Shown: positions 8,415 to 46,168 of the stretch, in pieces | Numbering within the stretch: position 1 is the stretch's first letter | Layout of the letters: each line of letters opens with the position of its first letter | NCBI GenBank assembly: GCA_963840965.1 | Contig: CAWJAW010000009.1 | Coordinates: 256,487-320,486 of the forward strand | Direction: 5' to 3' | From: an uncultured Bacteroidales bacterium | GTDB lineage: Bacteria > Bacteroidota > Bacteroidia > Bacteroidales > VadinHA17 | DNA: 64,000 nt | Translations under genes and position numbers: made by a program | The notes under the pieces: generated by a model | What the model was told of the DNA's origin: nothing | Seen by the model: only the letters and a program-made list of their open reading frames with translations | Databases searched by the model: none

Positions 8415-8652
8415 TGGGAGAAAAGGAGAAGGGGAGAAGAGGAGAGAATGAATTAACTCCGTGAGAATCTGTGATTAACTCCGTGTTACTCCGTGTTTAA
8501 CATCTTGATAACCAGCGGTTATATTTGTATGACCACGTGGTTGAAGAACCCCCTTTTGGGGCAGGGGGTAAAACAGGCAGGGGGGTGAAACGGTTTCAGG
8601 GAGTCTCTTCGTCTCCCCTTCTCCCCTTCTCCCCTTCTCCCCTTCTTTCCTC
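8415..8652. repeat. inverted purine-rich/pyrimidine-rich arms enclosing AACTCCGTG modules and a GC palindrome
   Basis: GGGAGAAAAGGAGAAGGGGAGAAGAGGAGAGAA (8415-8447) faces (CCCCTTCT)x4 within 8604-8652. The interior has AACTCCGTG x3 and CCCCCTTTTGGGGCAGGGGGTA (8549-8570). Confidence 0.8.
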
Positions 8653-17955: not shown

Positions 17956-17966
17956 GGGCATGAATG

Positions 17967-18011
17967 TCTTGCAAGTCGTGCAGGTCATGCAGGTCGTGCA
18001 GGTCGTGCAGG
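17967..18011. repeat. 9-nt tandem array (GTCKTGCAR) x5
   Basis: gtcttgcaa gtcgtgcag gtcatgcag gtcgtgcag gtcgtgcag. Confidence 0.9.
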
Positions 18012-18122: not shown

Positions 18123-18292
18123 AAATTCTTGTTTTTCTAGCTTCTTTTTCCTTCCTTTGCCCCTCAGAATATGGTGGAGAAATTTGAGCTGATTGCAACC
18201 ACAGGAAAAAATGCTAAAATGCCTCTGATCCCGTCTTTCCAGTCAACCATTATTCCCACCAAATGTTGATATGTTAACTTAACAATTAAGAT

Positions 18293-19639
18293 ATGGGTTA
18301 TCTATTTACATCCGAATCAGTTTCGGAAGGGCATCCTGATAAGGTTGCCGATCAGATATCAGACGCTCTTCTTGATGAGTTCCTCAAGTGGGATCCCGAA
18401 TCAAAAGTGGCATGCGAGACTTTTGTAACGACCGGTCTTGTCCTTTGCGGCGGGGAAGTCCGCACCGAAGGCTGGGTCGATGTTCAGGAGACGGCGCGCC
18501 GCGTTATAAGGGAAATCGGCTATACAAAGGCCGAATACAGGTTCGACTGCGATTCGTGCGGAGTGATTTCCACAATTCATGAGCAGTCGCAGGACATCCG
18601 ACAGGGAGTTGACAGGGAAAAGCCCGAGGATCAGGGAGCCGGCGACCAGGGCATGATGTTCGGCTTCGCATGCCGCGAGATGGACAATTACATGCCTCTC
18701 AGCATCGAACTGGCTCAGACTCTTCTGAAGCAGCTTGCCGCGATCAGGAAAGAAGGGAAACAGATGAAATACCTCAGGCCCGACAGCAAATCGCAGGTTA
18801 CCATTGAATACGATGACAACAACAAACCTGTCAGGATCGACACCATAGTCATCAGCACCCAGCACGATGAATTCGTTCTTCCCGAAAATAAATCTGCAAA
18901 GGCAGCTAAAAAGGCCGAGCAGGAAATGCAGAATAAGATAAAGGATGATCTGAAGAAAACCCTGCTTCCCCGGGTCAAAAAGCTTCTCCCTAAAGAAATT
19001 GGCAAACTCATCAATGACGATGTGAAGCTACTGGTCAACCCTACGGGCAAGTTCGTTATCGGCGGACCTCACGGGGACACCGGGCTCACGGGCAGGAAGA
19101 TCATAGTCGACACCTACGGCGGACATGGAGCTCATGGCGGAGGCGCTTTTTCAGGGAAAGATTCATCTAAAGTCGACAGGTCGGCAGCCTATGCCGCCAG
19201 GCATATCGCCAAGAACCTGGTGGCTTCGGGAGTCTGCGACCAGGCACTGATCCAGATAGCATATGCAATCGGGGTGGCACAGCCGGTTGGGCTTTATGTA
19301 AACACTTACGGAACGGCAAAGGTAAAGGACAAGAAAGACAGGATACTGCACGACAGCGAGATAGCAGCCGTGCTGAATAAGCTGTTCGACCTCAGGCCTT
19401 ATTCAATTGTTGAACGTTTCGGACTGAAGAACCCGGTGTTCCTTTCTACAGCAACCTACGGTCACTTCGGACGCATCAATGAAACCAGGGAGGTAGAGGT
19501 TTACTACCCTGTCAAAGACTCAAAACCTGTCGGAACCAACGGAAACGGCAAGGAAGTCTATAGAAAGAAAGTTGAGTTCTTCGCGTGGGAGAAGCTGGAT
19601 TATGTTGACAGGATAAGGAAGGCGTTCGGGTTGGTTTAG
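18293..19639 (+). CDS. metK: S-adenosylmethionine synthase
   Basis: [25 protein letters not shown].., [42 protein letters not shown]. Carries a Lys-rich insertion. Confidence 0.95.
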
Positions 19640-19662: not shown

Positions 19663-19694
19663 ACGACTTGCACGACTTGCACGACTTGCACGAC
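19663..19694. repeat. 9-nt tandem array (ACGACTTGC) x3.5, inverse of the 17967 array
   Basis: acgacttgc x3 plus acgac. The reverse complement is GCAAGTCGT. Confidence 0.9.
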
Positions 19695-24520: not shown

Positions 24521-27068
<2,548 letters not shown>

Positions 27069-27135
27069 GGCGTGCGGTATGCGGCTTGCGGCGCGAGGCG
27101 TGTGGCATTAGGAGCGAAGCATGCGGTGAATGAAT

Positions 27136-27168
27136 TACCGCGTACCGCGTACCTCGTACCGCGAACCG
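27136..27168. repeat. 7-nt tandem array (TACCGCG-like) x4.5
   Basis: taccgcg taccgcg tacctcg taccgcg aaccg. Confidence 0.85.
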
Positions 27169-27201
27169 TAAACACAAATACCGGATCGATATTGTCAAGG
27201 C

Positions 27202-27294
27202 TTACTGCCCCATGCCCATAGGCATGAGCGGCTTTTGAAGGTCCTGACTGATCTGAAAAAAATGTTTCATTGTCATAGTGTTCATTTTTATCAT
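27202..27294 (-). CDS. candidate Met-rich upstream ORF (30 codons)
   Basis: MIKMNTMTMKHFFQISQDLQKPLMPMGMGQ has 7 Met in 30 residues. The first AUG lies inside the 3' strand of riboswitch helix P1 (GAUGAUAA). There is no homology evidence. Confidence 0.3.
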   Translation of the reverse strand: MIKMNTMTMKHFFQISQDLQKPLMPMGMGQ

Positions 27295-27397
27295 CTCCCG
27301 TTTTGCCGGGATTAGGTTTTGGCACCTTTCTCCCGATTGGCCGGGATTGGTTGCCAGGGTTTCACAGAGCCTAATCTCTCCGCCCTTCTTAATAAAA
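27286..27397 (-). promoter_or_regulatory. SAM-I (S-box) riboswitch
   Basis: The minus strand reads UUAUUAAGAAGGGCGGAGAGAUUAGGCUCUGUGAAACCCUGGCAACC-AAUCCCGGCCAAUCGGGAGAAA-GGUGCCAAAACCUAA-UCCCGGCAAAACGGGA-GAUGAUAA. This matches the S-box core (GGnGGAGnGA, UGAAaCCC, GGCAACC, GGUGCYAA) with P1-P4 pairings. It lies upstream of metY-hom-metH-metF. Confidence 0.8.
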
Positions 27398-27439
27398 ATC
27401 AAACACCCTTAAATGGAAGGAATATTTGATTTGTGGCCA

Positions 27440-27470
27440 CAAATGTAAGAATGATTTTGGAAAAAACAAA
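27440..27470 (-). promoter_or_regulatory. candidate Bacteroidota sigma-A promoter (-33 TTTG / -7 TACATTTG)
   Basis: On the minus strand TTTG (27470-27467), a 19-nt spacer, then TACATTTG (27447-27440). It sits about 40 nt upstream of the riboswitch. Consensus is recalled from Bacteroides promoter studies. Confidence 0.4.
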
Positions 27471-27475
27471 AAAAC

Positions 27476-27579
27476 GGTACGCGGTATGCGGTACGCGGTA
27501 TGCGGTACAGCGGTATGCGGTATGCGGTATGCGGTACGCGGTATGCGGTATGCGGTATGCGGTACGCGGTAAGCGGTAA
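27476..27579. repeat. 7-nt tandem array (GGTAYGC) about x14
   Basis: ggtacgc/ggtatgc units run without interruption apart from one 8-nt unit. This is the left arm flanking the four-helix-bundle gene. Confidence 0.9.
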
Positions 27580-27628
27580 GAAGTACAAAGGTTGGTGACC
27601 TGCTGGTTAATTTCCAAAAGAAAATTCC

Positions 27629-27982
27629 TTACTTTTTTCTTGATAAGATTAACCTTGTTAGCATCGATGATATTTTATCGCATTCATCAACCAGTTGTTC
27701 CTGAGTTGACTTATCAACATATCCAATTTCAGATGCTATGATAAGCTGAGTCATCAGTTCAGCGGTAGATCCTTTTGCAATAAATAAGTATCGTATTGAA
27801 AGTCTGTTCGATCCCGATTCGTCTCCTTCAGCAATATTGCTGGAAATACTAACAGCGGCTCTTTGAATCTGATCCCTGAATCCAAAATCTCTCTTAAAAA
27901 ATTGATTTTGTGTTAGTTTATAGATCTTAACGGCAAGATCCCTGGCAATTTGCCAAACCTTAAGTTCCATGAAGTTTCCCAT
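27629..27982 (-). CDS. four-helix-bundle protein (23S rRNA intervening-sequence protein / S23p / Avd-like family)
   Basis: ELKVWQIARDLAVKIYKLT..FGFRDQIQRAAVSISSNIAEG....YLFIAKGSTAELMTQLIIA is the hallmark pattern of this family. 117 aa. Confidence 0.85.
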   Translation of the reverse strand: MGNFMELKVWQIARDLAVKIYKLTQNQFFKRDFGFRDQIQRAAVSISSNIAEGDESGSNRLSIRYLFIAKGSTAELMTQLIIASEIGYVDKSTQEQLVDECDKISSMLTRLILSRKK

Positions 27983-28065
27983 GATGCAGCGATTTAAAGA
28001 TTAATAAATTAATTAGCACGATATCCAAATATAATAAGAAACTTCACGCCGAGTACCACGCACAT

Positions 28066-28165
28066 CTTAATTCTTACCGCGTACCGCGTACCTCTTAACT
28101 CTTACCGCGTACCGCACACCGCGTACCGCGTACCTCTTAATTCTTGCCGCGTACCGCGTACCGCT
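28066..28165. repeat. higher-order array built on CGCGTACC (inverse of GGTAYGC)
   Basis: Three units of CTTAAYTCTTRCCGCGTACCGCGTACC(T). This is the right arm flanking the four-helix-bundle gene. Confidence 0.9.
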
Positions 28166-28218
28166 CTCAGTACAAAACTTAAAATTTTACACTACTTTTG
28201 CCTTAAATACCGGCATTA

Positions 28219-29688: not shown

Positions 29689-30272
29689 AAACGGATCCCC
29701 TCCTCGGAGGGGTTGGGGGTGGGTTAAGACAATGTGAGAGTGAGAGCGGGAGTGAGTAGAAAAACGTAATGGTAAACGGATCCCCTCCTCGGAGGGGTAG
29801 GGGTGGGTTAATAGTTATTATATAAATAATTATATGTCAAAAAAACGCAAAATCATCCCATATAATCCGGAACTTAAAGACCTGGCAAGTCAGCTCAGAA
29901 AGAATATGACTCTTTCAGAGGTTTTGCTCTGGATCGAGCTGAAAAATAAACAAATTCTTGGTTATGATTTTGACCGTCAGATTCCAATTGGGGATTACAT
30001 TGTCGATTTTTATTGCAAGGATTTAAGTCTGGCCGTTGAGATTGACGGGGATACTCATATATTCAAGTACGACGATGATGAGGTGAGGCAAAAGAATCTG
30101 GAGAAACTGGGTGTTCATTTTCTGAGATTTGAGGATATTGAGGTAAAAAAGAATATGGGGAATGTTCTGAGGGTTATTGAGGATTGGATTGAAAGAAGAA
30201 GACCCACCCCTACCCCTCCAAAGGAGGGGATCCTTAGAGAACCCACACCGAGCCCTCCAAAGGAGGGGATCC
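29689..30272 (+). mobile_element. DUF559-endonuclease mini-cassette bounded by duplicated terminal inverted repeats
   Basis: Left side: AAACGGATCCCCTCCTCGGAGGGGTWGGGGTGGGTTAA x2 (29689-29727, 29774-29811). Right side: the inverse copies ACCCACMCCKASCCCTCCAAAGGAGGGGATCC x2 (30202-30233, 30241-30272). The DUF559 ORF lies between them. Confidence 0.55.
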
Positions 30273-31795
30273 TTAGAGGACATATTTCTGCACCTGTTTT
30301 TGTTGGAAAACTTGCCATTGGCGGCACAAATCCTATCCGTATTCAGTCAATGACCAACACCGACACTCTCGACACCAAAGCCTCCGTTGCACAATGCATC
30401 AGAATAATTGAAGCCGGTGCCGACCTGGTGCGCCTTACTGCCCAGGGGATGAGGGAGGCGGCTTATCTTGCAAACATTAAAGCGGAACTGAGGAAGGCCG
30501 GATTTGAGACACCGCTTGTTGCGGATATTCATTTCAATCCCTCGGCCGCTGAACTTGCAGCAAGTATTGTCGAAAAGGTAAGGGTTAATCCGGGTAACTA
30601 TGCCGACAAGAGAGCATCATTCATAAAAGTGGAGTTCTCCGAACAGGAATACCGCGAGGAACTCGAAAGGATACACAAAAGGATATTGCCGCTTATCAAC
30701 ATATGCCACGAACACGGTACGGCTGTAAGGATAGGGGTCAATCACGGTTCACTGTCCGACAGGATAATGACCCGCTATGGCAACACCCCCGAGGGGATGG
30801 CAGTGTCGGCAATGGAATTCATAAGAATATTCCGGGCGGAGAATTTTCATAAGCTGGTACTGTCGATGAAATCGAGCGATACCGGCATAATGATAAAGTC
30901 TACCCACCGTTTGGTTGAGATGATGAAGGAGGAAGGATTCGCGTATCCTCTTCACCTGGGAGTGACCGAGGCAGGCGAAGGTGAGGATGGAAGGATAAGA
31001 TCATCGGCCGGCATCGGAGCGCTGCTGGCTGAAGGTATTGGCGATACTATCAGGGTTTCGCTGTCGGAAGCTCCCGAGAAAGAGATACCGGTGGCAAGGG
31101 AAATCCTGAATTTCCTTGCAGGTTCAGCCGGACGGGTAACAGATCCTGACAGCATCCTTGATTTCAAAACACACACTAAGCCATATAAGCCGGAAGTGGT
31201 GACTAATAATGACGGCATGTTTTCAGGAGAAGAAAATCAATGTTATAACAATGTTATAACGTTGTCAAAAGACAGTTTACCGCCTCCAGATATATTTAAA
31301 TATGAAGATGTTATCCTGAACGGAGAATTCAACGAGGATAACCCGGAAAAGCTGGCAATCGACTCAGCCGCCCTTCTTGGAAGATACTTCATCACACGTC
31401 AGGCTGGCGGAATATGCATCACGAACAAGGGAAAAATCAAAGGAGACAAGCTGAAGGAGCTTTCATTTTCAATTCTGCAGGCAACCGGAGCAAGGATTAC
31501 AAGGGTGGTTTATCTGTCATGTCCCACCTGCGGCCGGACCAGGTTCGATCTTCAGGAGGCGGTGAGGGAGGTGAAGGCTGTAACCGGTCACCTGACAGGA
31601 CTGAAGATTGCAGTGATGGGATGCATAGTGAACGGTCCGGGCGAAATGGCCGATGCGGATTACGGATACGTTGGGGCGGGGAACGGGAAGGTGCATATCT
31701 ACCGGGGAACAACCCAGGTGTTAAAGAACATTCCGCAGGAATCGGCTGCTGAAGCTTTACTGGCTCTTATTGAGAATGATCAGAGAGCGACGTGA
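29834..31795 (+). CDS. ispG: in-frame fusion ORF: N-terminal DUF559 (Vsr-fold endonuclease-like) domain + 4-hydroxy-3-methylbut-2-enyl diphosphate synthase
   Basis: Residues 1-125 (LRKNMTLSEVLLWIELKNKQILGYDFDRQIPIGDYIVDFYCKDLSLAVEIDGDTH..LRFEDIEV) are DUF559. The linker PTPTPPKEGILREPTPSPPKEGILRG is a translated repeat. Then IGGTNPIRIQSMTNTDT...GCIVNGPGEMADADYGYVG is IspG with the long Bacteroidota-type insert. There is no ATG/GTG/TTG between the repeat and the IspG core. Confidence 0.85.
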   Translation: MSKKRKIIPYNPELKDLASQLRKNMTLSEVLLWIELKNKQILGYDFDRQIPIGDYIVDFYCKDLSLAVEIDGDTHIFKYDDDEVRQKNLEKLGVHFLRFEDIEVKKNMGNVLRVIEDWIERRRPTPTPPKEGILREPTPSPPKEGILRGHISAPVFVGKLAIGGTNPIRIQSMTNTDTLDTKASVAQCIRIIEAGADLVRLTAQGMREAAYLANIKAELRKAGFETPLVADIHFNPSAAELAASIVEKVRVNPGNYADKRASFIKVEFSEQEYREELERIHKRILPLINICHEHGTAVRIGVNHGSLSDRIMTRYGNTPEGMAVSAMEFIRIFRAENFHKLVLSMKSSDTGIMIKSTHRLVEMMKEEGFAYPLHLGVTEAGEGEDGRIRSSAGIGALLAEGIGDTIRVSLSEAPEKEIPVAREILNFLAGSAGRVTDPDSILDFKTHTKPYKPEVVTNNDGMFSGEENQCYNNVITLSKDSLPPPDIFKYEDVILNGEFNEDNPEKLAIDSAALLGRYFITRQAGGICITNKGKIKGDKLKELSFSILQATGARITRVVYLSCPTCGRTRFDLQEAVREVKAVTGHLTGLKIAVMGCIVNGPGEMADADYGYVGAGNGKVHIYRGTTQVLKNIPQESAAEALLALIENDQRAT

Positions 31796-35906: not shown

Positions 35907-37688
35907 ATGAACGGAAAGATCAAACTATTCAGGAAAGCCCTGGCCCTTGTCTATGACAGCGCGCCCGGGTGGGCCACGGTGAACATCGTGATCTCGGTCC
36001 TGCAGAGCATTTTTCCCCTTGCCCTTGTCTGGCTGATTAAGCTTCTGATAGATGAAATTACCAATGCTGCTCAAGCCGGCACGGGAGCGGTCAATATAGT
36101 GCCGATGGTGATCGCAGTGGTAGTCGTTTACTTCCTGGATGAGGTATGTTCCGATTCGGGCAACTTTGTGCGCAGCAAGCAGTCGGTGAAACTCGAGGGA
36201 TATATGTACAACCTGCTTCACTCGAAAGCTGTGAGGCTCGACCTTATCAACTTTGAGCATCCCGGATATTACGACTGTCTGTCGAGGGCAACATCCGAAG
36301 CTCCATGGAGGCCAAACAACATACTGAACAACATAGTATCGATGTTCCGGGGATTGCTGTCGCTGCTGCTGATGGCCGGACTTCTGTTCACCCTGCACTG
36401 GGGGGTTGCCCTGATGCTGCTGGTGGTGAACATTCCGGGGATATGGCTCAGGCTGCACTATGCCGATATTCTTTATAACTTTCAGAGGGAACAGACACCC
36501 GAAGCCAGAAAGTCGGCGTATTTCAGCTGGCTCCTTACCGGCGACAGGCCTTCAAGAGAGATCAGGCTGTTCGGGTTGGGTAACTACTTCATCTCGCTGT
36601 TTAAGAAATCCTTTAACAGGCAGAAGGAAGAAGAACTGAACATCCTCAGAAAAAGGACAGTTATTGAACTGATATCGGATGTGGTCAAGGCTTCCGCAAT
36701 ACTTGTACTGCTCCTGGTGATAGCCAGGCATACGGTTTCGGGAGATCTCAGTCTTGGACAGATGGCCATGTTCCTGCTGGCATTCAGGCAGGGTATGACC
36801 TACATAAAGGATCTGTTCGTTTCGGTGGCCGGGCTTTATGAAGACGGGCTGTATATAGGCGACACATTCGAATTCCTCGATCTGAAGGAAAGCGTAGTGG
36901 CCAATCCGCCGGTCACGGTTCCCACTGAGCTGAAATCGGAGATCAAAGTTGAAGATATTTCGTTCACCTATCCCGGGAATGACTATGCAACCTTAAACAA
37001 GGTTTCGTTTGAGATAAAGAAGGGTGAGATAATTGCGCTGGTTGGTCCCAACGGAGCCGGGAAAAGCACCCTTGTGAGGCTGCTCACCCGTCTTTACGAT
37101 CCGGATACAGGCAGTGTGAGATGGGACGGAAATGATATTAAAACAATGGATCCTGATCAGTTCAGACTTTTCTTTTCGGTTGTTTTTCAGGATTTCATGC
37201 TATATAACCTTCCGGCCGGGGAGAACATCAGGATGGGAAATATTGATGCACCGGACCCGGATGAAAAGATCAGGAAGGCTGCCGCAAACTCGGGTGTTCA
37301 TGAACTTCTGAACAATCTGCCGAAGGGCTACGACACCACAATCGGGACCCTCTTTGACGACAGCAGGGAGCTGAGCTGGGGCGAATGGCAAAAGATAGCG
37401 CTTGCGAGGGCCTTGTTCCGCGAGTCGCCGGTTCTGATCCTCGATGAACCCTCCAGTTCGCTCGATGCGGATACGGAGCATGAGATATTTAGCCGTTTCA
37501 GGGAGATAGTCAACGGACGTACCTCCATTCTTATAACTCACAGATTTACCAATGTAACCCTGGCTGACAGGATAATTGTGCTGGAGCACGGAAGCATAAC
37601 GGAAACCGGATCGCATGAGGAGTTGATGAAGATGAAGGGGAGATATTGGGAGATGTTTAGGAAGCAGGCGGGTAGGCATGGGGCGTGA
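35907..37688 (+). CDS. ABC exporter, fused permease/ATPase (MsbA/McjD-like architecture)
   Basis: Six-TM N-terminal half. Walker A GPNGAGKST, signature LSWGEWQKIALARA, Walker B ILDEPSSSLD. About 593 aa. Confidence 0.85.
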   Translation: MNGKIKLFRKALALVYDSAPGWATVNIVISVLQSIFPLALVWLIKLLIDEITNAAQAGTGAVNIVPMVIAVVVVYFLDEVCSDSGNFVRSKQSVKLEGYMYNLLHSKAVRLDLINFEHPGYYDCLSRATSEAPWRPNNILNNIVSMFRGLLSLLLMAGLLFTLHWGVALMLLVVNIPGIWLRLHYADILYNFQREQTPEARKSAYFSWLLTGDRPSREIRLFGLGNYFISLFKKSFNRQKEEELNILRKRTVIELISDVVKASAILVLLLVIARHTVSGDLSLGQMAMFLLAFRQGMTYIKDLFVSVAGLYEDGLYIGDTFEFLDLKESVVANPPVTVPTELKSEIKVEDISFTYPGNDYATLNKVSFEIKKGEIIALVGPNGAGKSTLVRLLTRLYDPDTGSVRWDGNDIKTMDPDQFRLFFSVVFQDFMLYNLPAGENIRMGNIDAPDPDEKIRKAAANSGVHELLNNLPKGYDTTIGTLFDDSRELSWGEWQKIALARALFRESPVLILDEPSSSLDADTEHEIFSRFREIVNGRTSILITHRFTNVTLADRIIVLEHGSITETGSHEELMKMKGRYWEMFRKQAGRHGA

Positions 37689-37875
37689 GGCGTGAGTCGT
37701 GAGGCGTGAGACGAAGGGACGAAGAGACGGAGGGACGAAGGGACGGCGTGAGTCGTGAGGCGTGAGGGAGTAAAGCCAGGCTCAGGGCTCAGGGCTCAGG
37801 GCGCAGGGTTCGGCTGAAGGGGAGATAACTCCGTGTTACTCTTTTTTTACTTCGTGCGACTCCGTGTTTAAACTC
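37682..37875. repeat. mosaic of 7-8-nt tandem arrays
   Basis: (GGCGTGAG/TCGTGAG)n, (ACGAAGGG/ACGGAGGG)n, GGCGTGAG again, (GGCTCAG)x3-4, then the AACTCCGTG..ACTCCGTGTTTAAAC module. The first unit supplies the ABC exporter's TGA stop. Confidence 0.9.
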
Positions 37876-38060
37876 CTGGATTTCATGGCAAAAAATTACC
37901 AGTATTCCTGCCGGTTTTGCAAAAAAGTAGCAATTCTGCCTAAAAATATTAACCCATAAAAAAAATTCTAAAAAAATTCTAAATTTTTTTGGTAAATTCC
38001 TGAATATTTGCTATGTTTAGTGTTGAAAGTCAGTGCGTGCTAATTTAAATTTTTTAGGTT

Positions 38061-39129: not shown

Positions 39130-39245
39130 TAACCCTGGCTTTAAAGCCAGGGTTTGAGCAGCCAGGGTTTGAGCAGCCAGGGTTAGGCAGCCAGGGTTAG
39201 GCAGCCAGGGTTAGGCAGCCAGGGTTAGGCAGCCAGGGTTATACA
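39130..39245. repeat. perfect 24-nt palindrome followed by a 14-15-nt tandem array x7
   Basis: AACCCTGGCTTTAAAGCCAGGGTT (39130-39153). Then GCCAGGGTTTGAGCA x2, GCCAGGGTTAGGCA x4 and GCCAGGGTTATACA x1 (39146-39245). Confidence 0.9.
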
Positions 39246-39311
39246 GCCCAAGATCGTGAGCTGAGATTATGTAGCAGATACAGGTTATGATATACTCATG
39301 AAGGGATAGGA

Positions 39312-39752
39312 TCAGGTCTGACTATTATACTGGGTGAAGCCGTGTTGCCTGATATACTCCTCGCACTCCTGATCCCAGGTTTTCGATCTGTGATGAGATT
39401 CCTGATTACGGATATAGTTCCTTACTCTGTTGATGTGTGATTCGCTGATCGAGGCGGCATAGTATTCGTCGGCCCACTCGAATCTGGTTTTGATAAGCTG
39501 GATCTTGTTTATCCAATGTGCGGATTCCCCCTTGATCAATTGCATCACTTTCGACAGCGCCTGATCACAGCCGAGCATAAGCAGACAGTGAAGGTGTTCG
39601 GTGTGTCCGTTCAGGAAATCAATATGTATGTCTTTCGAAGCTGCATTGGTACGGATGTGGTTTATCACTTCATACTTCCTTCCGGGATAGAGGCAAGGTA
39701 CCCGGTTTTTGGTGCCCCACACGCAGTGGATCCAGATTTTTACGTAGGACAT
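39312..39752 (-). CDS. IS200-like Y1 (HUH) transposase / REP-associated tyrosine transposase-like
   Basis: IWIHCVWGTKNR.., HUH motif in GHTEHLHCLL, catalytic Tyr context RVRNYIRNQESHH. 146 aa. No IS605-type tnpB partner. Confidence 0.85.
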   Translation of the reverse strand: MSYVKIWIHCVWGTKNRVPCLYPGRKYEVINHIRTNAASKDIHIDFLNGHTEHLHCLLMLGCDQALSKVMQLIKGESAHWINKIQLIKTRFEWADEYYAASISESHINRVRNYIRNQESHHRSKTWDQECEEYIRQHGFTQYNSQT

Positions 39753-39884
39753 GAGGATTGGGGTTAGTAGTTATACTGGTGGTGAGCTTCGTATGTCTGC
39801 GCCCCGCCCCCGCTGGGCAGCCGGGGTTGGGCAGCAGGGGTCAGATAGCATATGATGGGCAGCAGGGCAGATGGCAGACATGGT

Positions 39885-40469: not shown

Positions 40470-40513
40470 TTTTTAAGAGTTAAGAATATGATTATGTTAA
40501 CATTATGTCCATA

Positions 40514-40700
40514 TTAAAACCTGAATCCAAATATCGGGGTTATCGAAAGACCTTCAAAGCCAAGAGCCCAGATAACATTCGAATCTGCCCTCAGGCCAAG
40601 GTAGAAATTGCTTTCGAACTGGTAGTAGTAATCGAGACAGATGGTGAAGCCGATTTCGTAAAAATCTCACTATAATCTAGTATTGATAATAAGTACCATC
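40514..40700 (-). pseudogene. C-terminal fragment of an OMP beta-barrel gene
   Basis: The minus frame reads ..YEIGFTICLDYYYQFESNFYLGLRADSNVIWALGFEGLSITPIFGFRF* with no start codon. It has a terminal aromatic residue like the neighbouring OMP. Confidence 0.35.
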
Positions 40701-40828
40701 ATTATATGCTTCAGCAATGTCAGGCCTTAAAAAACAATCTCTTTTAAGTTTGAATCCCACACCAGGTTCAATAAAATTGTTGCCCTTTAATTTTACCTGT
40801 CTCGAAAAAACCATATCGACCATTTGCC

Positions 40829-41104
40829 TTATTTCAAATGTCTTAAATCCTCAAAAGCTCCACCGTCCATATTGTCCATTCCATTGTTGCCATTGATAAT
40901 CTTGCCGTTAATGATAATGCCTGTTTTAAATTTATAACCACCTTCCAACCAATAGATTGGCCCATCTACAGCAGTAAATAACATCCATATAATATCCAGC
41001 TCCTGATCTGAATTGTAAACCTTTTCTCCTGTGAATTGCATATGACAGTAAAGGAGAGTAATAAAATGCTTATAAATTCCTTTTTCATACTGTAATCTGA
41101 TCAT
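40829..41104 (-). CDS. hypothetical ORF in AT-rich region (possibly a gene remnant)
   Basis: 91 aa with Gly/Asn-rich repeats (GIIINGKIINGNNG). Protein-like reading continues past the stop in another frame (NGRYGFFETGKIKG). Confidence 0.25.
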   Translation of the reverse strand: MIRLQYEKGIYKHFITLLYCHMQFTGEKVYNSDQELDIIWMLFTAVDGPIYWLEGGYKFKTGIIINGKIINGNNGMDNMDGGAFEDLRHLK

Positions 41105-42318
41105 TCATAAATTTTAACTTCAAACAACTGCATATACTGGTAAACAGATATTTATAAGGTGCTCGAAAATCAATTGCAGAATTTTACAAGGTAAATTCAT
41201 AATTTAAAACACAGGCCTGTACCAACAAAAAAGAAACTTCCATTATTCATATCATGTATCCTTGAATTAAGCTGAATACCATGTTTTTGAACAAATAAAA
41301 TGTAATATCTATGCCTGCGTGGTAACCGAAATGGTTATTACGAACATAATGATAATCATTAAAAATATATGTAAAGCTTCTTCCTCAAGATCATATTCAT
41401 ATTCAATGTTTTTTATGAAAGAAGCTTTTTGCTCTTGCCATAGATGCACCAGCAATGACATCCATTGTAATCCATTTCTTTTCAATTGGCCTGAGGAAAC
41501 TGAAATACTGCACCTAAATTCATTAATGACATTTCTGGGTATTTATATCTCAAGCGATCCTCCTATTTCACTATATGGAACTTCAAAGACAGATAATATT
41601 GAGAATTGTAAATGTCCAAATAGAACCTTTACTCCATACCACGATAAATGAAAATGAAGATTCTCCAGAAAACAGATTACCGCCTCCATAAGTATCGGAC
41701 AGATCTATTGAATAATTGAATAGAAACACTAATTTTTAGTTGAGTCAGTAGCCTTTGTAGATTCGACATTGGTTAACACAAAAAATCGAATAATATTGTT
41801 ACATTTTAATAAATAGTTCTTCATTTTCTATCATTTTTAAAACCATCCCTTTAGTTACTATCTTCACCAAAGGGATGGATAGCATATAAATTACTTAATA
41901 GAGAATCCTTAAAGGAGTTGTCAATTTAAAGACTTAGCACACGTTTTCCTTACAGTCCAACCATCTTTTACTTCATCACCTGGTTCAGGATTTGAATTTG
42001 TTCTCATAAACCAATCTCTATCCCATTCAGACAAGTCCTAAAAAATCCCCACCATAAGACACTTTGAATGTTGCAGTTACAGTTGGACTTAAGATTATCT
42101 GTTTTATAACCGACGATGTGCTTATACTAGCTTTCTTTGACAGTGTCATATTCATAAACTAGACATACACTGTTGTATTTTTTCGGCTCTCCAATTAGTA
42201 TCCCAACTAATATTAACAGTATACCAACCACCATTTGAATGAACAGTCCAATCATTAATAGCAGCTTTTGCATATGATCTAGGATAACTTAATTGGAATT
42301 ACTGTTGTAAATTTGCCG

Positions 42319-43074
42319 TTAACTGCTCCAGTTGTATAGATTATATTCTGGATAACCTCTAGATATTCTCAATTCTAGATCTCCTTCGAACAGACCACCA
42401 CAATAATCAGCACATCTTACTTTACCAACTTTTACTTCATATATTGGATCACCTTTTACACCAGCTATGGCATCAGTTAAGATTCCCTTAGTATCACCAT
42501 CCTCATCCTTCGGCATGACCAGCAGCACCATATTTTTATCAGCGTACTCTTCATTTACTCTTACCTGAACCATCTTTCTTCCCTCGAAGCGGTAGCCGGT
42601 GTTTTCAACATCGTTGTCGATGGGATGGGCGGCGACGGTGAAGGAAAGGGTACCTTTCGGGTAGAAGCTCGAAGGATAGGGGCAGTAGATATAGCAGTCA
42701 TTCTTTGAAAGGAAGTTAATCAGATCACTGGTATTGCCCTTGGACTCCGATGAGGTGCATCCTTTAATAAAGCCGGTCCGGAGGTTTCTGAATGATCCGG
42801 CGACACTCTTGGATTCATCCATAAGGTCGCTGAAGGGCAGGCTGTAGCATTCACGGTCTTCCCTTGAAAGGGAAACAAGTTCGTTAAGCACGGCTTCATC
42901 CTGTATAACATCGGCAAGGATTTGTGCTGCCTGATCAAGATTGGTCTTGAGAAGCGTTTCAGAATCGGTGAGGGCTCTCCTGCCGATCAGATCCTGATTA
43001 ATGGGTCCTGAATCATATTTTTCGCAGCTTGCCAGAGTAAGGCAAACAGCTATAACACAGACAATCTTTTTCAT
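42319..43074 (-). CDS. hypothetical lipoprotein
   Basis: MKKIVCVIAVCLTLASCEKYDSG lipobox (ORF opens at 43101). Protein-like reading continues beyond the stop at 42319. Confidence 0.6.
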   Translation of the reverse strand: MKKIVCVIAVCLTLASCEKYDSGPINQDLIGRRALTDSETLLKTNLDQAAQILADVIQDEAVLNELVSLSREDRECYSLPFSDLMDESKSVAGSFRNLRTGFIKGCTSSESKGNTSDLINFLSKNDCYIYCPYPSSFYPKGTLSFTVAAHPIDNDVENTGYRFEGRKMVQVRVNEEYADKNMVLLVMPKDEDGDTKGILTDAIAGVKGDPIYEVKVGKVRCADYCGGLFEGDLELRISRGYPEYNLYNWSS

Positions 43075-43466
43075 TTTAGAAAAATGTTTTGAATTGAACA
43101 TTTGGGTTATAAGCCCTTTGTTATATTTAAGGTTGCGACCTGTGGGGTAAGATCCCGGCGGATTGGCCGCTTTATCCCCGGGAGATGAGTCAGTTCTGTT
43201 TCATAGGCACGAGGTTTTACATGCAGTGAGACATTATGTTTATTCCACAAACAACATTAATTCAGTTTAAAATCAACCGCACCGTACTCCCTTTCACTGT
43301 ATTGCAATAGCAATATTAAAATGCGCCGGGGCCAGAATAAAATTTTTTTGCAATTATTTTTCGAAAAAATGAAAAAAATTTTCCGCGGGGGTATATATAA
43401 TAAAAAGGTATGGTTTGAAACACGAGGGGGAAGGGTATGAGGTATGAGGCGTGAGGCGTGAACCAC

Positions 43467-43592
43467 CTTCGCTAAAACCTTCGCTAAAGCTACGGTGTTC
43501 AAAGAAAGCTACGGCGGTCGAAGGGCGTGAAGGCGAAGAAGAAGAAGTTTCTCGCAGATTTGCGCAGAGGAAAACCGCAGATTTCCGCAGAG
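43467..43592. repeat. dispersed composite element, inverse copy of 18022-18122
   Basis: CTTCGCTAAAACCTTCGCTAAAGCTACGGTGTTCAAAGAAAGCTACG ... CTCGCAGATTTGCGCAGAGGAAAACCGCAGATTTCCGCAGAG. Confidence 0.85.
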
Positions 43593-43625
43593 GGCTTAAC
43601 CACGGTGTAACACGGAGTGTCAAAG

Positions 43626-43768
43626 AGATGCGTAAATCCCGAGCGCAGTTTCGGGGCAAGTCATCGAACTCATAAAACTCCGTGCGACTCCGCGGTTAAA
43701 TTATTGATTATAAATGAATAACTTCGTGTTACTCCGTTCCTAACTCCGTGCGACTCCGTGGTTAAACC
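43626..43768 (+). repeat. ~143-bp element, left direct repeat flanking HEPN-MNT
   Basis: GATGCGTAAATCCCGAGCGCAGTTTCGGGGCAAGTCA..CATAAAACTCCGTG..ATTATTGA..AACTCCGTGCGACTCCGTGGTTAAAC. Roughly 80-85% identical by eye to 44743-44886. Confidence 0.8.
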
Positions 43769-43885
43769 AATGGGCAAAGCCCTTCCGTGGTTAAGTCCCT
43801 GTGATTCCGTGGTTAAAGCAAGGGACAGGGGGTGAAGCTAAGCAAAAAACTGTGTGGGTGGGGAAAGGCAATTACATACGCCATC

Positions 43886-44296
43886 CTACTTACCTGTATT
43901 ATTTTTCTGGTCTATCAGCAATTCTATCTTTTCGATAAGTATTGCGACAGGCTGGAAAAGCGGCATTGTTTTTTCCTGATCAAAATCAAAGAAATCACCG
44001 TAGTCTCCCTTTTGTCTCCAGTCAAAGAGTTCAACGAAAAGCCTGCCTGATTCCTTATCAATCAATCCAGTTTTAATAAAATGAAGAGTGAATTGATGCT
44101 TCAGTCCTGCATGTGAGCTTGCATAAATATCAAATTTATAAAGAAGAGCTGATATAGCATAGAAGCAAGAATAATATAGTCTGTTGATTGAAGAATTCCA
44201 ATGTCCGTTTGTTGCAAGCAGTTTAGCAGCCTCCAGAGTCTCCCTGGAGATTTTCAAACGATAGCTGATGTAATCCGGATTTATTGATCGGGTCAT
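43886..44296 (-). CDS. HEPN domain protein (toxin-like partner of MNT)
   Basis: 136 aa, helical. ..INRLYYSCFYAISALL.. and WRQKGDYGD, an HEPN R-x4-6-(H/Y)-type motif. Overlaps the upstream NTase by 4 nt. Confidence 0.8.
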   Translation of the reverse strand: MTRSINPDYISYRLKISRETLEAAKLLATNGHWNSSINRLYYSCFYAISALLYKFDIYASSHAGLKHQFTLHFIKTGLIDKESGRLFVELFDWRQKGDYGDFFDFDQEKTMPLFQPVAILIEKIELLIDQKNNTGK

Positions 44297-44610
44297 AACC
44301 TGACACCTTCTCTTTTAATAGTCCGATAGAGAGGAGTTACCTTATGTAAGCTATTCCAGACCTGTTTCTGGTAAACGAAAGTAGAAAATACTTCACCTGT
44401 CTCGATCTCAATTTCAAAAAGACTATTCCGAAATGATCTTTCGATTTCCGTCGATACAGCATATTGTGTCAGGATCAGAATGTCCCAGTCAGATTCATTC
44501 CTGGCATCACCCCTGGCCCGCGAACCAAAAAGTATGACCTGAGCTTTAGGATCAATGATCTTAATGCTGCTTTTAATCCGCTTTAATATTTCGTCGTTTT
44601 TGAGGGTCAT
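44293..44610 (-). CDS. minimal nucleotidyltransferase (MNT) domain protein
   Basis: ILFGSRARGDARNESDWDILIL matches the GSxxRG...DxD pol-beta NTase motif. 105 aa. Confidence 0.85.
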   Translation of the reverse strand: MTLKNDEILKRIKSSIKIIDPKAQVILFGSRARGDARNESDWDILILTQYAVSTEIERSFRNSLFEIEIETGEVFSTFVYQKQVWNSLHKVTPLYRTIKREGVRL

Positions 44611-44742
44611 AATGCAAATCTACAAAATAAATGGATTGGCTGAATGGATGAAACCACTTATCGCTGATTTTAAGGCGACAAGGCGTGAAAGAGGAGAGGT
44701 CGTGCAGGTCATGCAGGCGCAGGTCAAGCAGGTCGTGTTAAA

Positions 44743-44886
44743 GTGATGCGTAAACCCCGAGCGTAGCGTCGGGGCAAGTCACCGGATTCATAAAACTCCG
44801 TGTTACTCCACAGATAAATTATTGAATATCAATAATTAACTCCGTGTTCCTCCTTTCTTAACTCCGTGCGACTCCGTGGTTAACTC
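44743..44886 (+). repeat. ~143-bp element, right direct repeat flanking HEPN-MNT
   Basis: GTGATGCGTAAACCCCGAGCGTAGCGTCGGGGCAAGTCA..CATAAAACTCCGTG..ATTATTGA..AACTCCGTGCGACTCCGTGGTTAAC. Confidence 0.8.
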
Positions 44887-44915
44887 CTTGCGACTCCGTG
44901 GTTAAAGAACCCCCT

Positions 44916-45635
44916 TCAAGGGGCAAAGGTTCTTACAACTGCATCCTTAATTGAGATTTTACCGGCGCCAAGCGAATTGTCCGATCCCAGGAGAAAATCA
45001 TTTGCAATTGTTGTGATGGATCTGCCTAACTGATCAATATCGACCGGCCTTATATGCCAGTCAGATTTCTGAAAAAGAAAAACCGGGAAGCTTTTAATAC
45101 GTTGTTCCACGTCAATCTCGTTGATTATTGCCTTGTTTTTAGCTTCGCCGAAAACCTCCATCCAGTTAAAGCTGTAGTTCTGAGATATCATGCATATATC
45201 AAAGACATCCTTTGGTTCATCGCGGCTGACAACAGCTGTAAGCTTATTTGTCAGTATATTAAGAGGTGTATCTATAAAACCATATTCATATTTATTGGCG
45301 ACACCACACCTGTAAGCAGTATCATTTACAAATTCAATCTTAAGCGCTCCTTCTTCGTCTTCAATATAAAAACGAACAAAATCCTCGTAAATAGTGCTTT
45401 GTTCCTTTAGCAGCGAAACTTGTCTTGCCAGGACTGTCTCAATATCCTTTACAAGAACATGAAACTCATGACTTTTATTCAGAAAAAAATACAGATCCTC
45501 ACTGAAGCGGTGGTTGAGATAAAATCTCCCCAGTGCAGTCCCGCCGGTCAGGTAAAAGTTACCAATTACCGGCTTCAAAGCCTGAAGCACCTTATCCTGC
45601 GTCCGGTAAAGCCTCCTGTAATCTTTTCCTGACAT
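44916..45635 (-). CDS. AbiEii/AbiGii-family nucleotidyltransferase toxin-like protein
   Basis: FYLTGGTALGRFYLNHRFSEDLYFF matches the family's N-terminal motif (GGTAL...RxSxDlDf) as recalled. Confidence 0.75.
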   Translation of the reverse strand: MSGKDYRRLYRTQDKVLQALKPVIGNFYLTGGTALGRFYLNHRFSEDLYFFLNKSHEFHVLVKDIETVLARQVSLLKEQSTIYEDFVRFYIEDEEGALKIEFVNDTAYRCGVANKYEYGFIDTPLNILTNKLTAVVSRDEPKDVFDICMISQNYSFNWMEVFGEAKNKAIINEIDVEQRIKSFPVFLFQKSDWHIRPVDIDQLGRSITTIANDFLLGSDNSLGAGKISIKDAVVRTFAP

Positions 45636-45897
45636 ACTTGTATTTTTTACGGACTGATTCCGGCCATAACGATGCGATAACCTTCTCAGTCATCATCTCC
45701 TTAACCTTTTCAACAGGTACAAGTTGGATGACTGTGAACCACGGTAAACCCGTCAGCATTCTGGTAAATAACTGCTCACGGCTTAAATGACCGGCTTCTT
45801 TAATCCTGCCGTCAAGCAAGCCATCCAATTCGGCGGGTGATATGGAGTAATCCCACATGACGGATTTGAGAATTTTATGACGCTGCCGTTTATCCAT
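45592..45897 (-). CDS. small upstream partner ORF (putative antitoxin)
   Basis: 101 aa, directly upstream of and overlapping the AbiEii-like ORF by 44 nt. No family recognised. Confidence 0.5.
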   Translation of the reverse strand: MDKRQRHKILKSVMWDYSISPAELDGLLDGRIKEAGHLSREQLFTRMLTGLPWFTVIQLVPVEKVKEMMTEKVIASLWPESVRKKYKYVRKRLQEALPDAG

Positions 45898-46168
45898 TCA
45901 TTAAAATGCTGCATTTCAACAAATATACTCAATATTTCGCATTTACGGGAAGGAGGAAAGGCAAGAAGGCGTGAGGATTAAGGCGTGAAGCGTGCTCCGT
46001 GTTACAAATGGTTAAACTCTTGCAATTCATATCGTTTCAGGGCAAATAATTATCGTTTTACGATATCCGGGTTATTGTAAGCAATGCCAGACGGGGCGTT
46101 GCCCCGCCCTATACTATTCCAGGCCTACGGCCTGAGTAAGAGATGGAAAATTCTGCAGCCCTGTCAGC

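Follow-up and report, generated by a model that had tools for sequence, protein, structure and literature searches.

A four-helix-bundle gene framed by inverted heptamer arrays in a Bacteroidales genome: a candidate intervening-sequence-type cassette outside rRNA

In a 64-kb (64,000-nt) stretch of DNA from a Bacteroidales metagenome-assembled genome (MAG), hereafter the window, by which the whole stretch is meant, there lies a cassette of ~690 bp whose ends are mirror-image runs of a 7-base repeat, with a gene for a four-helix-bundle (4HB) protein between them. Judged from homologous loci, this arrangement belongs to the gene family and is not a local oddity of the window locus. The reading that we favor, at a probability of about 0.45, is that 27475-28165 is a cassette of the intervening-sequence (IVS) type located outside rRNA, the arms of which pair with one another in an RNA that spans them both. 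A preliminary description of this DNA had spoken of an “IVS-like module outside rRNA,” which turns out to be a fair description, given conserved and co-varying arms, empty sites in relatives and a match in parts to the IVS of Coxiella. The cassette comprises the following features.

27475..27586, no strand: arm 1, tandem heptamers CGGTAYG, G-rich on the plus strand (from Tandem Repeats Finder (TRF), exact copies, inverted pairs and folds)
27629..27982, minus strand: 4HB gene, 117 aa, 23S_rRNA_IVP / S23p / Avd-like family (PF05635, TIGR02436, NF008912, PDB 2GSC)
28013..28033, minus strand: promoter-like region, -7 box TATATTTG at 28026-28033, then GTGCTAA at 28013-28019 (a conserved motif)
28049..28165, no strand: arm 2, TACCGCG heptamer blocks, C-rich on the plus strand (from TRF, exact copies and inverted pairs)

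The array of arm 1 runs from 27475 to 27578 with a period of 7, 14.7 copies and 88% matches in TRF, an alternative row giving a period-14 unit, CGGTACGCGGTATG, with 92% matches; the inner end of the arm is the non-repeat sequence GGTAAGAAGTAC. On the sense (minus) strand of the gene this is the C-rich 3' arm, beginning 43 nt past the stop codon. Arm 2, on the same strand the G-rich 5' arm, is a composite in which TCTTAAYTCT spacers break the array into blocks of 2-4 TACCGCG heptamers (TRF 28049-28164, rows of period 35/42), and its period-7 row covers 28075-28164 with 12.9 copies and 75% matches. Exact GGTAYGC copies number 12 on the plus strand in 27476-27567 and 7 on the minus strand (as GGTACGC) in 28079-28162. 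All but three of the 25 exact matches in the window fall in 27076-28162 (22/25), and chance would give 9.6 +/- 3.7 over the whole window, 25 being reached in 0/100 shuffles. The preliminary description, with its about 14 GGTAYGC copies on one side of a 117-aa 4HB gene and arrays of the reverse complement on the other, is thus borne out, arm 2 being the composite just described.

The two arms are also complementary over much of their length. The best-matching stretches, 27509-27586 in arm 1 and 28088-28165 in arm 2, cover 78 nt with 81% complementarity, and the inverted repeat extends beyond the heptamers into the non-repeat inner ends. Folding of 27455-28175 with RNAfold predicts an imperfect closing stem of ~100 nt on both strands, in minimum-energy and centroid folds alike, at -255 and -256.4 kcal/mol for the two strands (z -9.6 and -10.4). 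A very long imperfect stem is what had been supposed from inspection of the repeats, and the fold predictions agree with it.

The protein encoded between the arms is assigned without difficulty. Its scores exceed the curated cut-offs of the family, with 117.6 bits against PF05635 (3.6e-34; cut-off 33.8), 115.8 bits against TIGR02436 (1e-33; cut-off 24) and 129.5 bits against NF008912 (cut-off 124), and its nearest solved structure is Xcc0516 (PDB 2GSC, 3.3e-14); the PADLOC and PHROGs libraries hold no match to it. The GC content of the open reading frame (ORF) is 36%, versus 49-51% in the neighboring genes. Across five orthologs lying between metY and cysS, the ratio of nonsynonymous to synonymous divergence (dN/dS) is 0.08-0.19 and dS reaches 0.67, values which indicate that the protein is under purifying selection and functional, and that the insertion is old.

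The promoter-like region stands upstream of this gene, and a leader, AAATCGCTGCATC, spans from it to the ATG. A TAnnTT[TG][GA] motif recurs at about -45 to -62 in 16 of the 21 Bacteroidota homologous loci. The Bacteroidetes promoter consensus is TAnnTTTG, and it is by this likeness that the 28013-28033 motif may be taken as a putative promoter.

That the arms go with the gene is supported by a survey of its relatives. Eighty genomic loci with homologues 56-97% identical were fetched, from Bacteroidota, Desulfobacterota, Nitrospirota, Leptospirales, Sumerlaeota, Geobacter and others (at least five phyla), and 68 were usable for flank scoring. With 200 nt taken on each side, neighbor genes of the same loci as controls and a threshold of at least 12 on the local alignment score of the inverted flanks, 55 of the 68 loci pass, versus 7 of 106 neighbor genes (Mann-Whitney p 3.5e-19). 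Of the three “controls” with the highest scores, two are themselves 4HB genes, one a divergent member of PF05635 (L005:1704-2060, E 9e-13) and the other an additional 4HB gene of L058; the third has a cassette on either side. Other copies of the family without inverted arrays would have refuted the preliminary description; with complementary flanks at these 55 loci, the survey does not refute it. RNAduplex energies of 250-nt flanks had also been computed, and were dropped for their noise, shuffled G+C-rich sequence pairing nearly as strongly; the local alignment against control genes and the matching of TRF units took their place.

A tandem array with a 6-9-nt unit is present on at least one side in all 68 loci, and on both sides in 53. 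Among matched pairs, 37 have a repeat period of 7 and 12 a period of 8. Upstream arrays have a median of 4.6 copies and downstream arrays one of 4.3, the largest expansions reaching about 30 copies, and a typical arm is thus roughly 30 nt, the size of known IVS stems. The units themselves vary by locus (GGTATGC, AGGCGCA, AAGGTAT, GGTGTAGT, CCGGTTA and others) among proteins that are 60-80% identical. Within a locus, the two units match to within 1 mismatch in 59% of cases, versus 10.6% of cross-locus pairings. The copies of a single MAG (L019, L024 and L065) each have their own unit, and the idea of a genome-specific heptamer was rejected because units differ among them.

Here, too, more distant relatives follow the pattern. 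Matched arms are found in most of eight IMG/VR loci whose proteins are 32-52% identical, and a second subfamily, 21% identical to the window protein, has GGAGAAA/GGCGAAA arms plus their complements. Protein identity across phyla is about 60%. Searches with Rfam found no rRNA in the window and none in 20 homologous loci on short contigs. At four loci (L055 4150-5071, L167, L043 and L048) a full pair of G-arm and C-arm stands on each side of the gene, in the order (G C) gene (G C), or G and C blocks follow one another serially; such layouts suggest nested or repeated arm formation.

The arms of one locus also appear to evolve together. Among the orthologs between metY and cysS the variable triplet of the heptamer shifts on both arms at once, being TAC/TAT in the window and L001, CGT/TAC in L081 and CGT/CGA in L002. 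Copy number changes freely, and differs between L081 and L084. Polarity is strict. Around 4HB genes the G-rich arm is 5' in 35 cases and 3' in 0, with 7 neutral cases having palindromic CCGG-type units and no skew; gene-less pairs less than 150 nt apart give 15:0, and overall the count is 114:12, the rare reversed pairs being made of a C-arm and the G-arm of the element that comes after it. As a palindromic arrangement reads the same on both strands, this polarity is uninformative on the orientation of the gene.

The surroundings of the cassette permit a comparison with relatives that lack it. As the preliminary description had it, the site is between the met promoter and cysS, with the SAM-I riboswitch and metY on one side and cysS on the other. 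The features of this spacer outside the cassette are listed below.

25721-27025, minus strand: metY
27066-27110 / 27136-27168, no strand: gene-less heptamer pair, GGCGTGCGGTATGCGGCTTGCGG ... TACCGCGTACCGCGTACC, the same heptamers as in the arms (from a repeat search)
27285-27398, minus strand: SAM-I riboswitch, leading metY (Rfam)
27440..27474, minus strand: left host boundary, the metY/SAM-riboswitch promoter, -7 box TACATTTG at 27440-27447, then a T-run with -33 TTTG (from the spacer alignment)
28193..28200, plus strand: right host boundary, the cysS -7 box TACTTTTG, kept in cassette-less relatives
28219, plus strand: start of cysS

The cassette sits between the divergent host promoters of metY and cysS, immediately upstream of the riboswitch-controlled metY promoter. 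Its host boundaries were placed by aligning by eye 16 orthologous spacers recovered by a cysS scan. Five orthologous spacers, in the window, L001 (which has a 97% ortholog of the window gene), L002, L081 and L084, contain the 4HB gene with its arms, the spacer being 1,193 nt long in the window and 1,147-1,255 nt in L081/L084. Six minimal spacers of 418-475 nt (L089, L096, L097, L100, L102 and L142) have neither gene nor arrays, and in them the riboswitch promoter is directly followed by the cysS promoter. As the orthologous spacers without the gene are also without the arrays, gene and arms together form one old insertion, 27475-28165. The A-run beside arm 1 had been considered as the tail of a terminator; this was rejected, for the run belongs to the metY promoter, as its -33 region, and is conserved in cassette-less relatives, and it is hence host sequence. 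An inverton was likewise rejected, the orientation relative to cysS being the same in 5/5 orthologs and no recombinase gene being adjacent.

Other relatives have something else in the same place. In L082 and L083 a CACGGAGTT/AACTCCGTG hairpin occurs exactly where the window has its 4HB cassette, L086 and L099 have G/C palindromes there, L090 a 500-nt insert, and L113 an ORF flanked by CCCC..GGGG hairpins. With at least five unrelated small inserts at one position among related Bacteroidales (L081-L160), the metY-cysS spacer is an insertion hot spot.

The gene-less pair at 27066-27168 has the metY start codon on one side and the SAM riboswitch on the other. At its position L081/L084 have arrays of 12 and 3 copies with a loop of 6 nt between them, and the empty-site relatives are without it. 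It is probably a derivative of, or a sibling to, the cassette arms; the region around it (27020-27180) folds no better than shuffles (z -0.26). Beside it, six tandem GTTTATC units (GATAAAC on the metY strand) at 27024-27069 abut the metY start codon, again missing from the empty-site relatives and recalling the heptamer runs just 5' of start codons in Beggiatoaceae (PMC4679880).

The RNA pairing, RNase III cleavage and insulating role that we infer for the IVS-type cassette would operate as follows. A functional 4HB gene, with its own promoter in the lineage of the window, would be carried between inverted tandem 7-nt arms. In any RNA spanning both arms, the G-rich 5' arm would pair with the C-rich 3' arm, in many possible registers, and a long double-stranded stem around the gene would result. 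At the window the spanning RNA would be read-through from outside, and where the arm abuts the start codon it would be the gene's own mRNA. RNase III, which cleaves the homologous stem in rRNA, would cut this one too; the cassette would thereby be removed from host transcripts and insulated against them, and would itself be expressed to a limited extent. The arms would lengthen and shorten by slippage and yet stay complementary. A cassette that is cut out and insulated in this manner could, we propose, sit harmlessly in rRNA or between genes, and it may be mobile.

Several observations weigh against this reading. In the subfamily of the window the conserved promoter-like motif lies between the 5' arm and the ATG, downstream of that arm, and the gene's own mRNA would hence have the C-rich arm and not its partner. 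(The contrary, which favors RNA pairing, holds for Desulfobacterota and for the second subfamily, where the G-rich arm reaches to about 10-30 nt from the ATG and must therefore form part of the mRNA leader; at two Desulfobacterota loci, scans for sigma-70 promoters and terminators gave nothing above shuffle level.) The arms are both unequal and unstable, with 4.4 copies upstream and 30.7 downstream in L001, and 14.7 copies opposite a spacer-interrupted array in the window. An RNase III stem does not predict the strict polarity of G-rich 5' and C-rich 3' arms. Mismatches between arms comprise 121 that would be wobble pairs in the sense strand, 109 in the antisense strand and 281 transversions; there is no G.U excess on either strand, and selection for pairing in RNA rather than DNA is consequently not indicated. 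Finally, matched inverted arrays bracket metK as well, so that arms are not exclusive to 4HB genes: 9-mer arrays at 17966-18011 (GTCGTGCAG x5.1) and 19663-19694 (ACGACTTGC x3.6), which differ by one mismatch as reverse complements and have the G-rich arm 5', enclose a SAM-II riboswitch (18168-18227) and metK (18293-19639).

The rival that survives best, though in our estimation still rather unlikely, places the pairing in DNA. The arms would then be the terminal inverted repeats of a foldback-type mobile element, pairing as single-stranded DNA or as a cruciform, with RNA pairing incidental, and they would serve insertion, excision or recombination, the 4HB protein or a host enzyme acting upon them. 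The joint presence or absence of gene and arms in orthologous spacers speaks for this, as do the low GC of the ORF (36% versus about 50% in host genes), the about 60% protein identity across phyla and the several copies of some genomes, each with its own unit (L019, L024 and L065 of one MAG). So, too, do arm mismatches without G.U bias and with frequent transversions, an architecture that is identical when read from either strand, the other small inserts in the same spacer of relatives (L082/83, L086/99, L090, L113) and the rRNA inserts with a 4HB ORF at several sites. On the other hand, no recombinase or transposase is found in or beside the cassette, the neighbors being hom, metY, cysS and DUF559-ispG, and neither a target-site duplication nor any recent identical copy came to light. 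Between metY and cysS the cassette has been kept in place over a dS of 0.67, in the same orientation in 5/5 orthologs, and the sole experimental data on homologous arms concern RNA cleavage.

It is improbable, to our mind, that the arms need not pair at all and that the arrays act instead as an insulator, stopping cassette-born transcripts from entering host genes. RNA leaving the cassette in either direction would be C-rich and G-poor, like a Rho loading site, and RNA entering it would be G-rich. This accommodates a G-rich arm that is the 5' one whichever strand is read (35:0; gene-less pairs 15:0), an internal promoter-like motif that would yield transcripts with the C-rich arm only, and the location of the cassette immediately 5' of the riboswitch-controlled metY promoter. 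It leaves unexplained why the unit is shared within a locus and differs between loci, and why the inverted repeat reaches into the non-repeat inner ends, and it sits poorly with the palindromic CCGG-type units without skew at several loci (the 7 neutral cases).

We regard it as very improbable that the arms have no function, being slippage-prone simple repeats whose place beside the gene is accidental, or whose likeness is maintained only through gene conversion or template switching between the inverted copies. Such an origin would be in keeping with the about 60 short-period arrays in the window, many of them in other spacers, with the fast change in copy number, with arm mismatches that lack a wobble signature and with a gene-less pair that folds no better than shuffles. 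It is opposed by the association with 4HB genes across phyla and in two subfamilies, by units that are matched per locus and not per genome (L019, L024 and L065 differ), by empty sites without arrays and by an invariant polarity; the part of it that appeals to chance is largely refuted.

Highly improbable is a pentameric 4HB protein that binds the units in its own flanks, in the manner of TRAP or of iteron binding, and so regulates or packages its own RNA or DNA: the family does form pentameric toroids (PDB 2GSC, five chains; PMC4990558), a typical arm has about 4-5 units and the only known biochemistry of the family is the binding of nucleic acid and reverse transcriptase by Avd (PMC10053308), but units as varied as GGTATGC, AAGGTAT, CCGGTTA and AGGCGCA among 60-80% identical proteins, with complementarity conserved and not sequence, would not be tolerated by a sequence-specific binder. 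A more sweeping conjecture, a long shot when all its parts are taken jointly, is that 4HB cassettes are a hitherto unrecognized, phylum-spanning class of bacterial foldback elements with directionally made arms. Their arrays would be G-strand-like 6-8-nt repeats that run (G-strand)n...(C-strand)n on either strand, the polarity of telomeres fused head to head, and would be built or lengthened by telomerase-like reiterative copying, in which a polymerase or reverse transcriptase provided in trans would have the Avd-like 4HB protein as its cofactor. The cassettes would on this conjecture also be the source of rRNA IVS and of many intergenic heptamer arrays, including gene-less pairs and perhaps the short tandemly repeated repetitive (STRR) sequences and long simple-sequence repeats.

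The window holds further elements of selfish appearance. A DUF559 endonuclease-like ORF (PF04480, 6.7e-29) at 29834-30280 is fused in frame to ispG, with two 39-nt repeats bearing CCCCTCC..GGAGGGG palindromes at the junction (30202-30278); by its appearance it would be a further small selfish gene flanked by hairpins, and similar CCCC..GGGG hairpins occur in the insert of L113. An IS200-like Y1 transposase gene, RAYT-like, at 39312-39752 on the minus strand (PF01797, 4.7e-23; region 39145-39870) adjoins a 14-mer array, AGCCAGGGTTAGGC x6.8 (39145-39241), with G-rich degenerate repeats on the opposite side (39800-39870). A composite intergenic element recurs at 8452-8501, 37674-37880, 43420-43800, 44680-44905 and 45940-46030, made up of a conserved core (gatgcgtaaaYcccgagcg..tcggggcaagtca) together with arrays that are G-rich (AGGCGTG, AGGTCGTGC) or C-rich (AACTCCGTGYGACTCCGTGGTTAA). 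Amid these arrays (43886-45897) are a HEPN and nucleotidyltransferase pair of toxin-antitoxin type (43886-44610, minus strand) and AbiEii (44916-45635, minus strand) with a small upstream ORF. From ~40480 to 42320, over about 1.8 kb, the DNA is AT-rich and its ORFs are all short and broken, which sets it apart from the remainder of the window.

How IVS arose and what they are for, and what the very widespread S23p/Avd-like 4HB proteins do, has been asked since the early 1990s. Should the ORF-carrying IVS be no more than the form that a general cassette takes in rRNA, its arms would belong to the element's own biology and would not be an accident specific to rRNA. The general cassette would be a 4HB gene in co-evolving inverted arms of fixed polarity, present in thousands of copies across phyla, and the question would become testable in ordinary intergenic copies of cultured bacteria. 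Such cassettes would also provide a source for some of the short tandem repeats of bacterial intergenic DNA, and a simple rule for annotating cassette ends.

Among known systems, diversity-generating retroelements (DGR) have in Avd a pentameric four-helix bundle of the same superfamily as the 4HB protein. A DGR was nevertheless rejected, as within about 3 kb there are only homoserine dehydrogenase, metY, cysS and DUF559-ispG and no reverse transcriptase; nor are there template or variable repeats near the cassette, the heptamer arms being its only repeats. Repetitive extragenic palindromes (REP) and their inverted pairs (REPIN) with a REP-associated tyrosine transposase (RAYT) resemble the cassette in being a lone small gene with inverted short-repeat flanks, with gene-less pairs elsewhere in the genome. 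This assignment, too, was rejected, for the gene is PF05635 and not PF01797 (Y1/HUH), and the flank arrays are locus-specific and not a genome-wide palindrome.

Foldback elements such as Drosophila FB and sea-urchin TU have long inverted termini built of short tandem units, with unequal arms and a unit count that varies from copy to copy. The cassette shares these termini, and like foldback elements it comes in copies with a coding middle and in bare copies. There is no relationship in sequence or protein, and foldback elements are eukaryotic; the arms of the cassette have strict polarity and 7-8-nt units. Bearing on transposition are presence and absence in orthologous spacers and several copies per MAG; close pairs of filled and empty sites, target duplications and near-identical copies were not found. 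Known intergenic heptamer arrays (cyanobacterial STRR, long simple-sequence repeats, and the TAACTGA repeats of Beggiatoaceae, Cyanobacteria and Bacteroidetes; PMC4679880) are described as direct arrays with one genome-wide unit, often 5' of start codons. They are like the cassette arms in their tandem 7-nt units, patchy phylogeny and variable copy number; unlike the arms, they are not described as matched inverted pairs around one gene family. Tandem-repeat inverted arms, their co-variation and their polarity at free-standing 4HB genes are not described in the literature searched, which did not include the original Leptospira and Coxiella IVS papers.

The closest known system is the ORF-containing 23S IVS (Coxiella burnetii helix 45; Leptospira; Brucella; Xanthomonas), with which the cassette has S23p/PF05635 in common. 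An IVS is an insert of about 430-700 nt, regarded as selfish or formerly mobile (PMC4990558), and in candidate phyla radiation (CPR) bacteria 23S_rRNA_IVP ORFs are found in inserts at several 16S and 23S sites, mostly the tips or bases of stem-loops (bioRxiv 10.1101/2024.02.27.582315). The Coxiella IVS has an S23p ORF, described as decaying, a 28-bp terminal inverted-repeat stem and, just 5' of the ATG, 2-3 tandem heptamers of strain-variable copy number, the RNase III cut being mapped to the first heptamer repeat (PMC4990558). The window cassette differs in lying between protein-coding genes, flanked by the metY leader and cysS, where an IVS would be inside 23S or 16S rRNA and replace a helix tip (25 or 45), and for this reason we name it an IVS-type cassette and not an IVS. 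Its arms are far longer (about 100 nt, and up to 215 nt in L001) and almost wholly tandem units, and, unlike the Coxiella IVS, it has in its lineage a promoter-like motif of its own and a protein under purifying selection. What the two have in common is their size, stem-forming terminal inverted repeats that enclose an ORF, and tandem heptamers of variable number, the copy number differing here among L001, L081 and L084.

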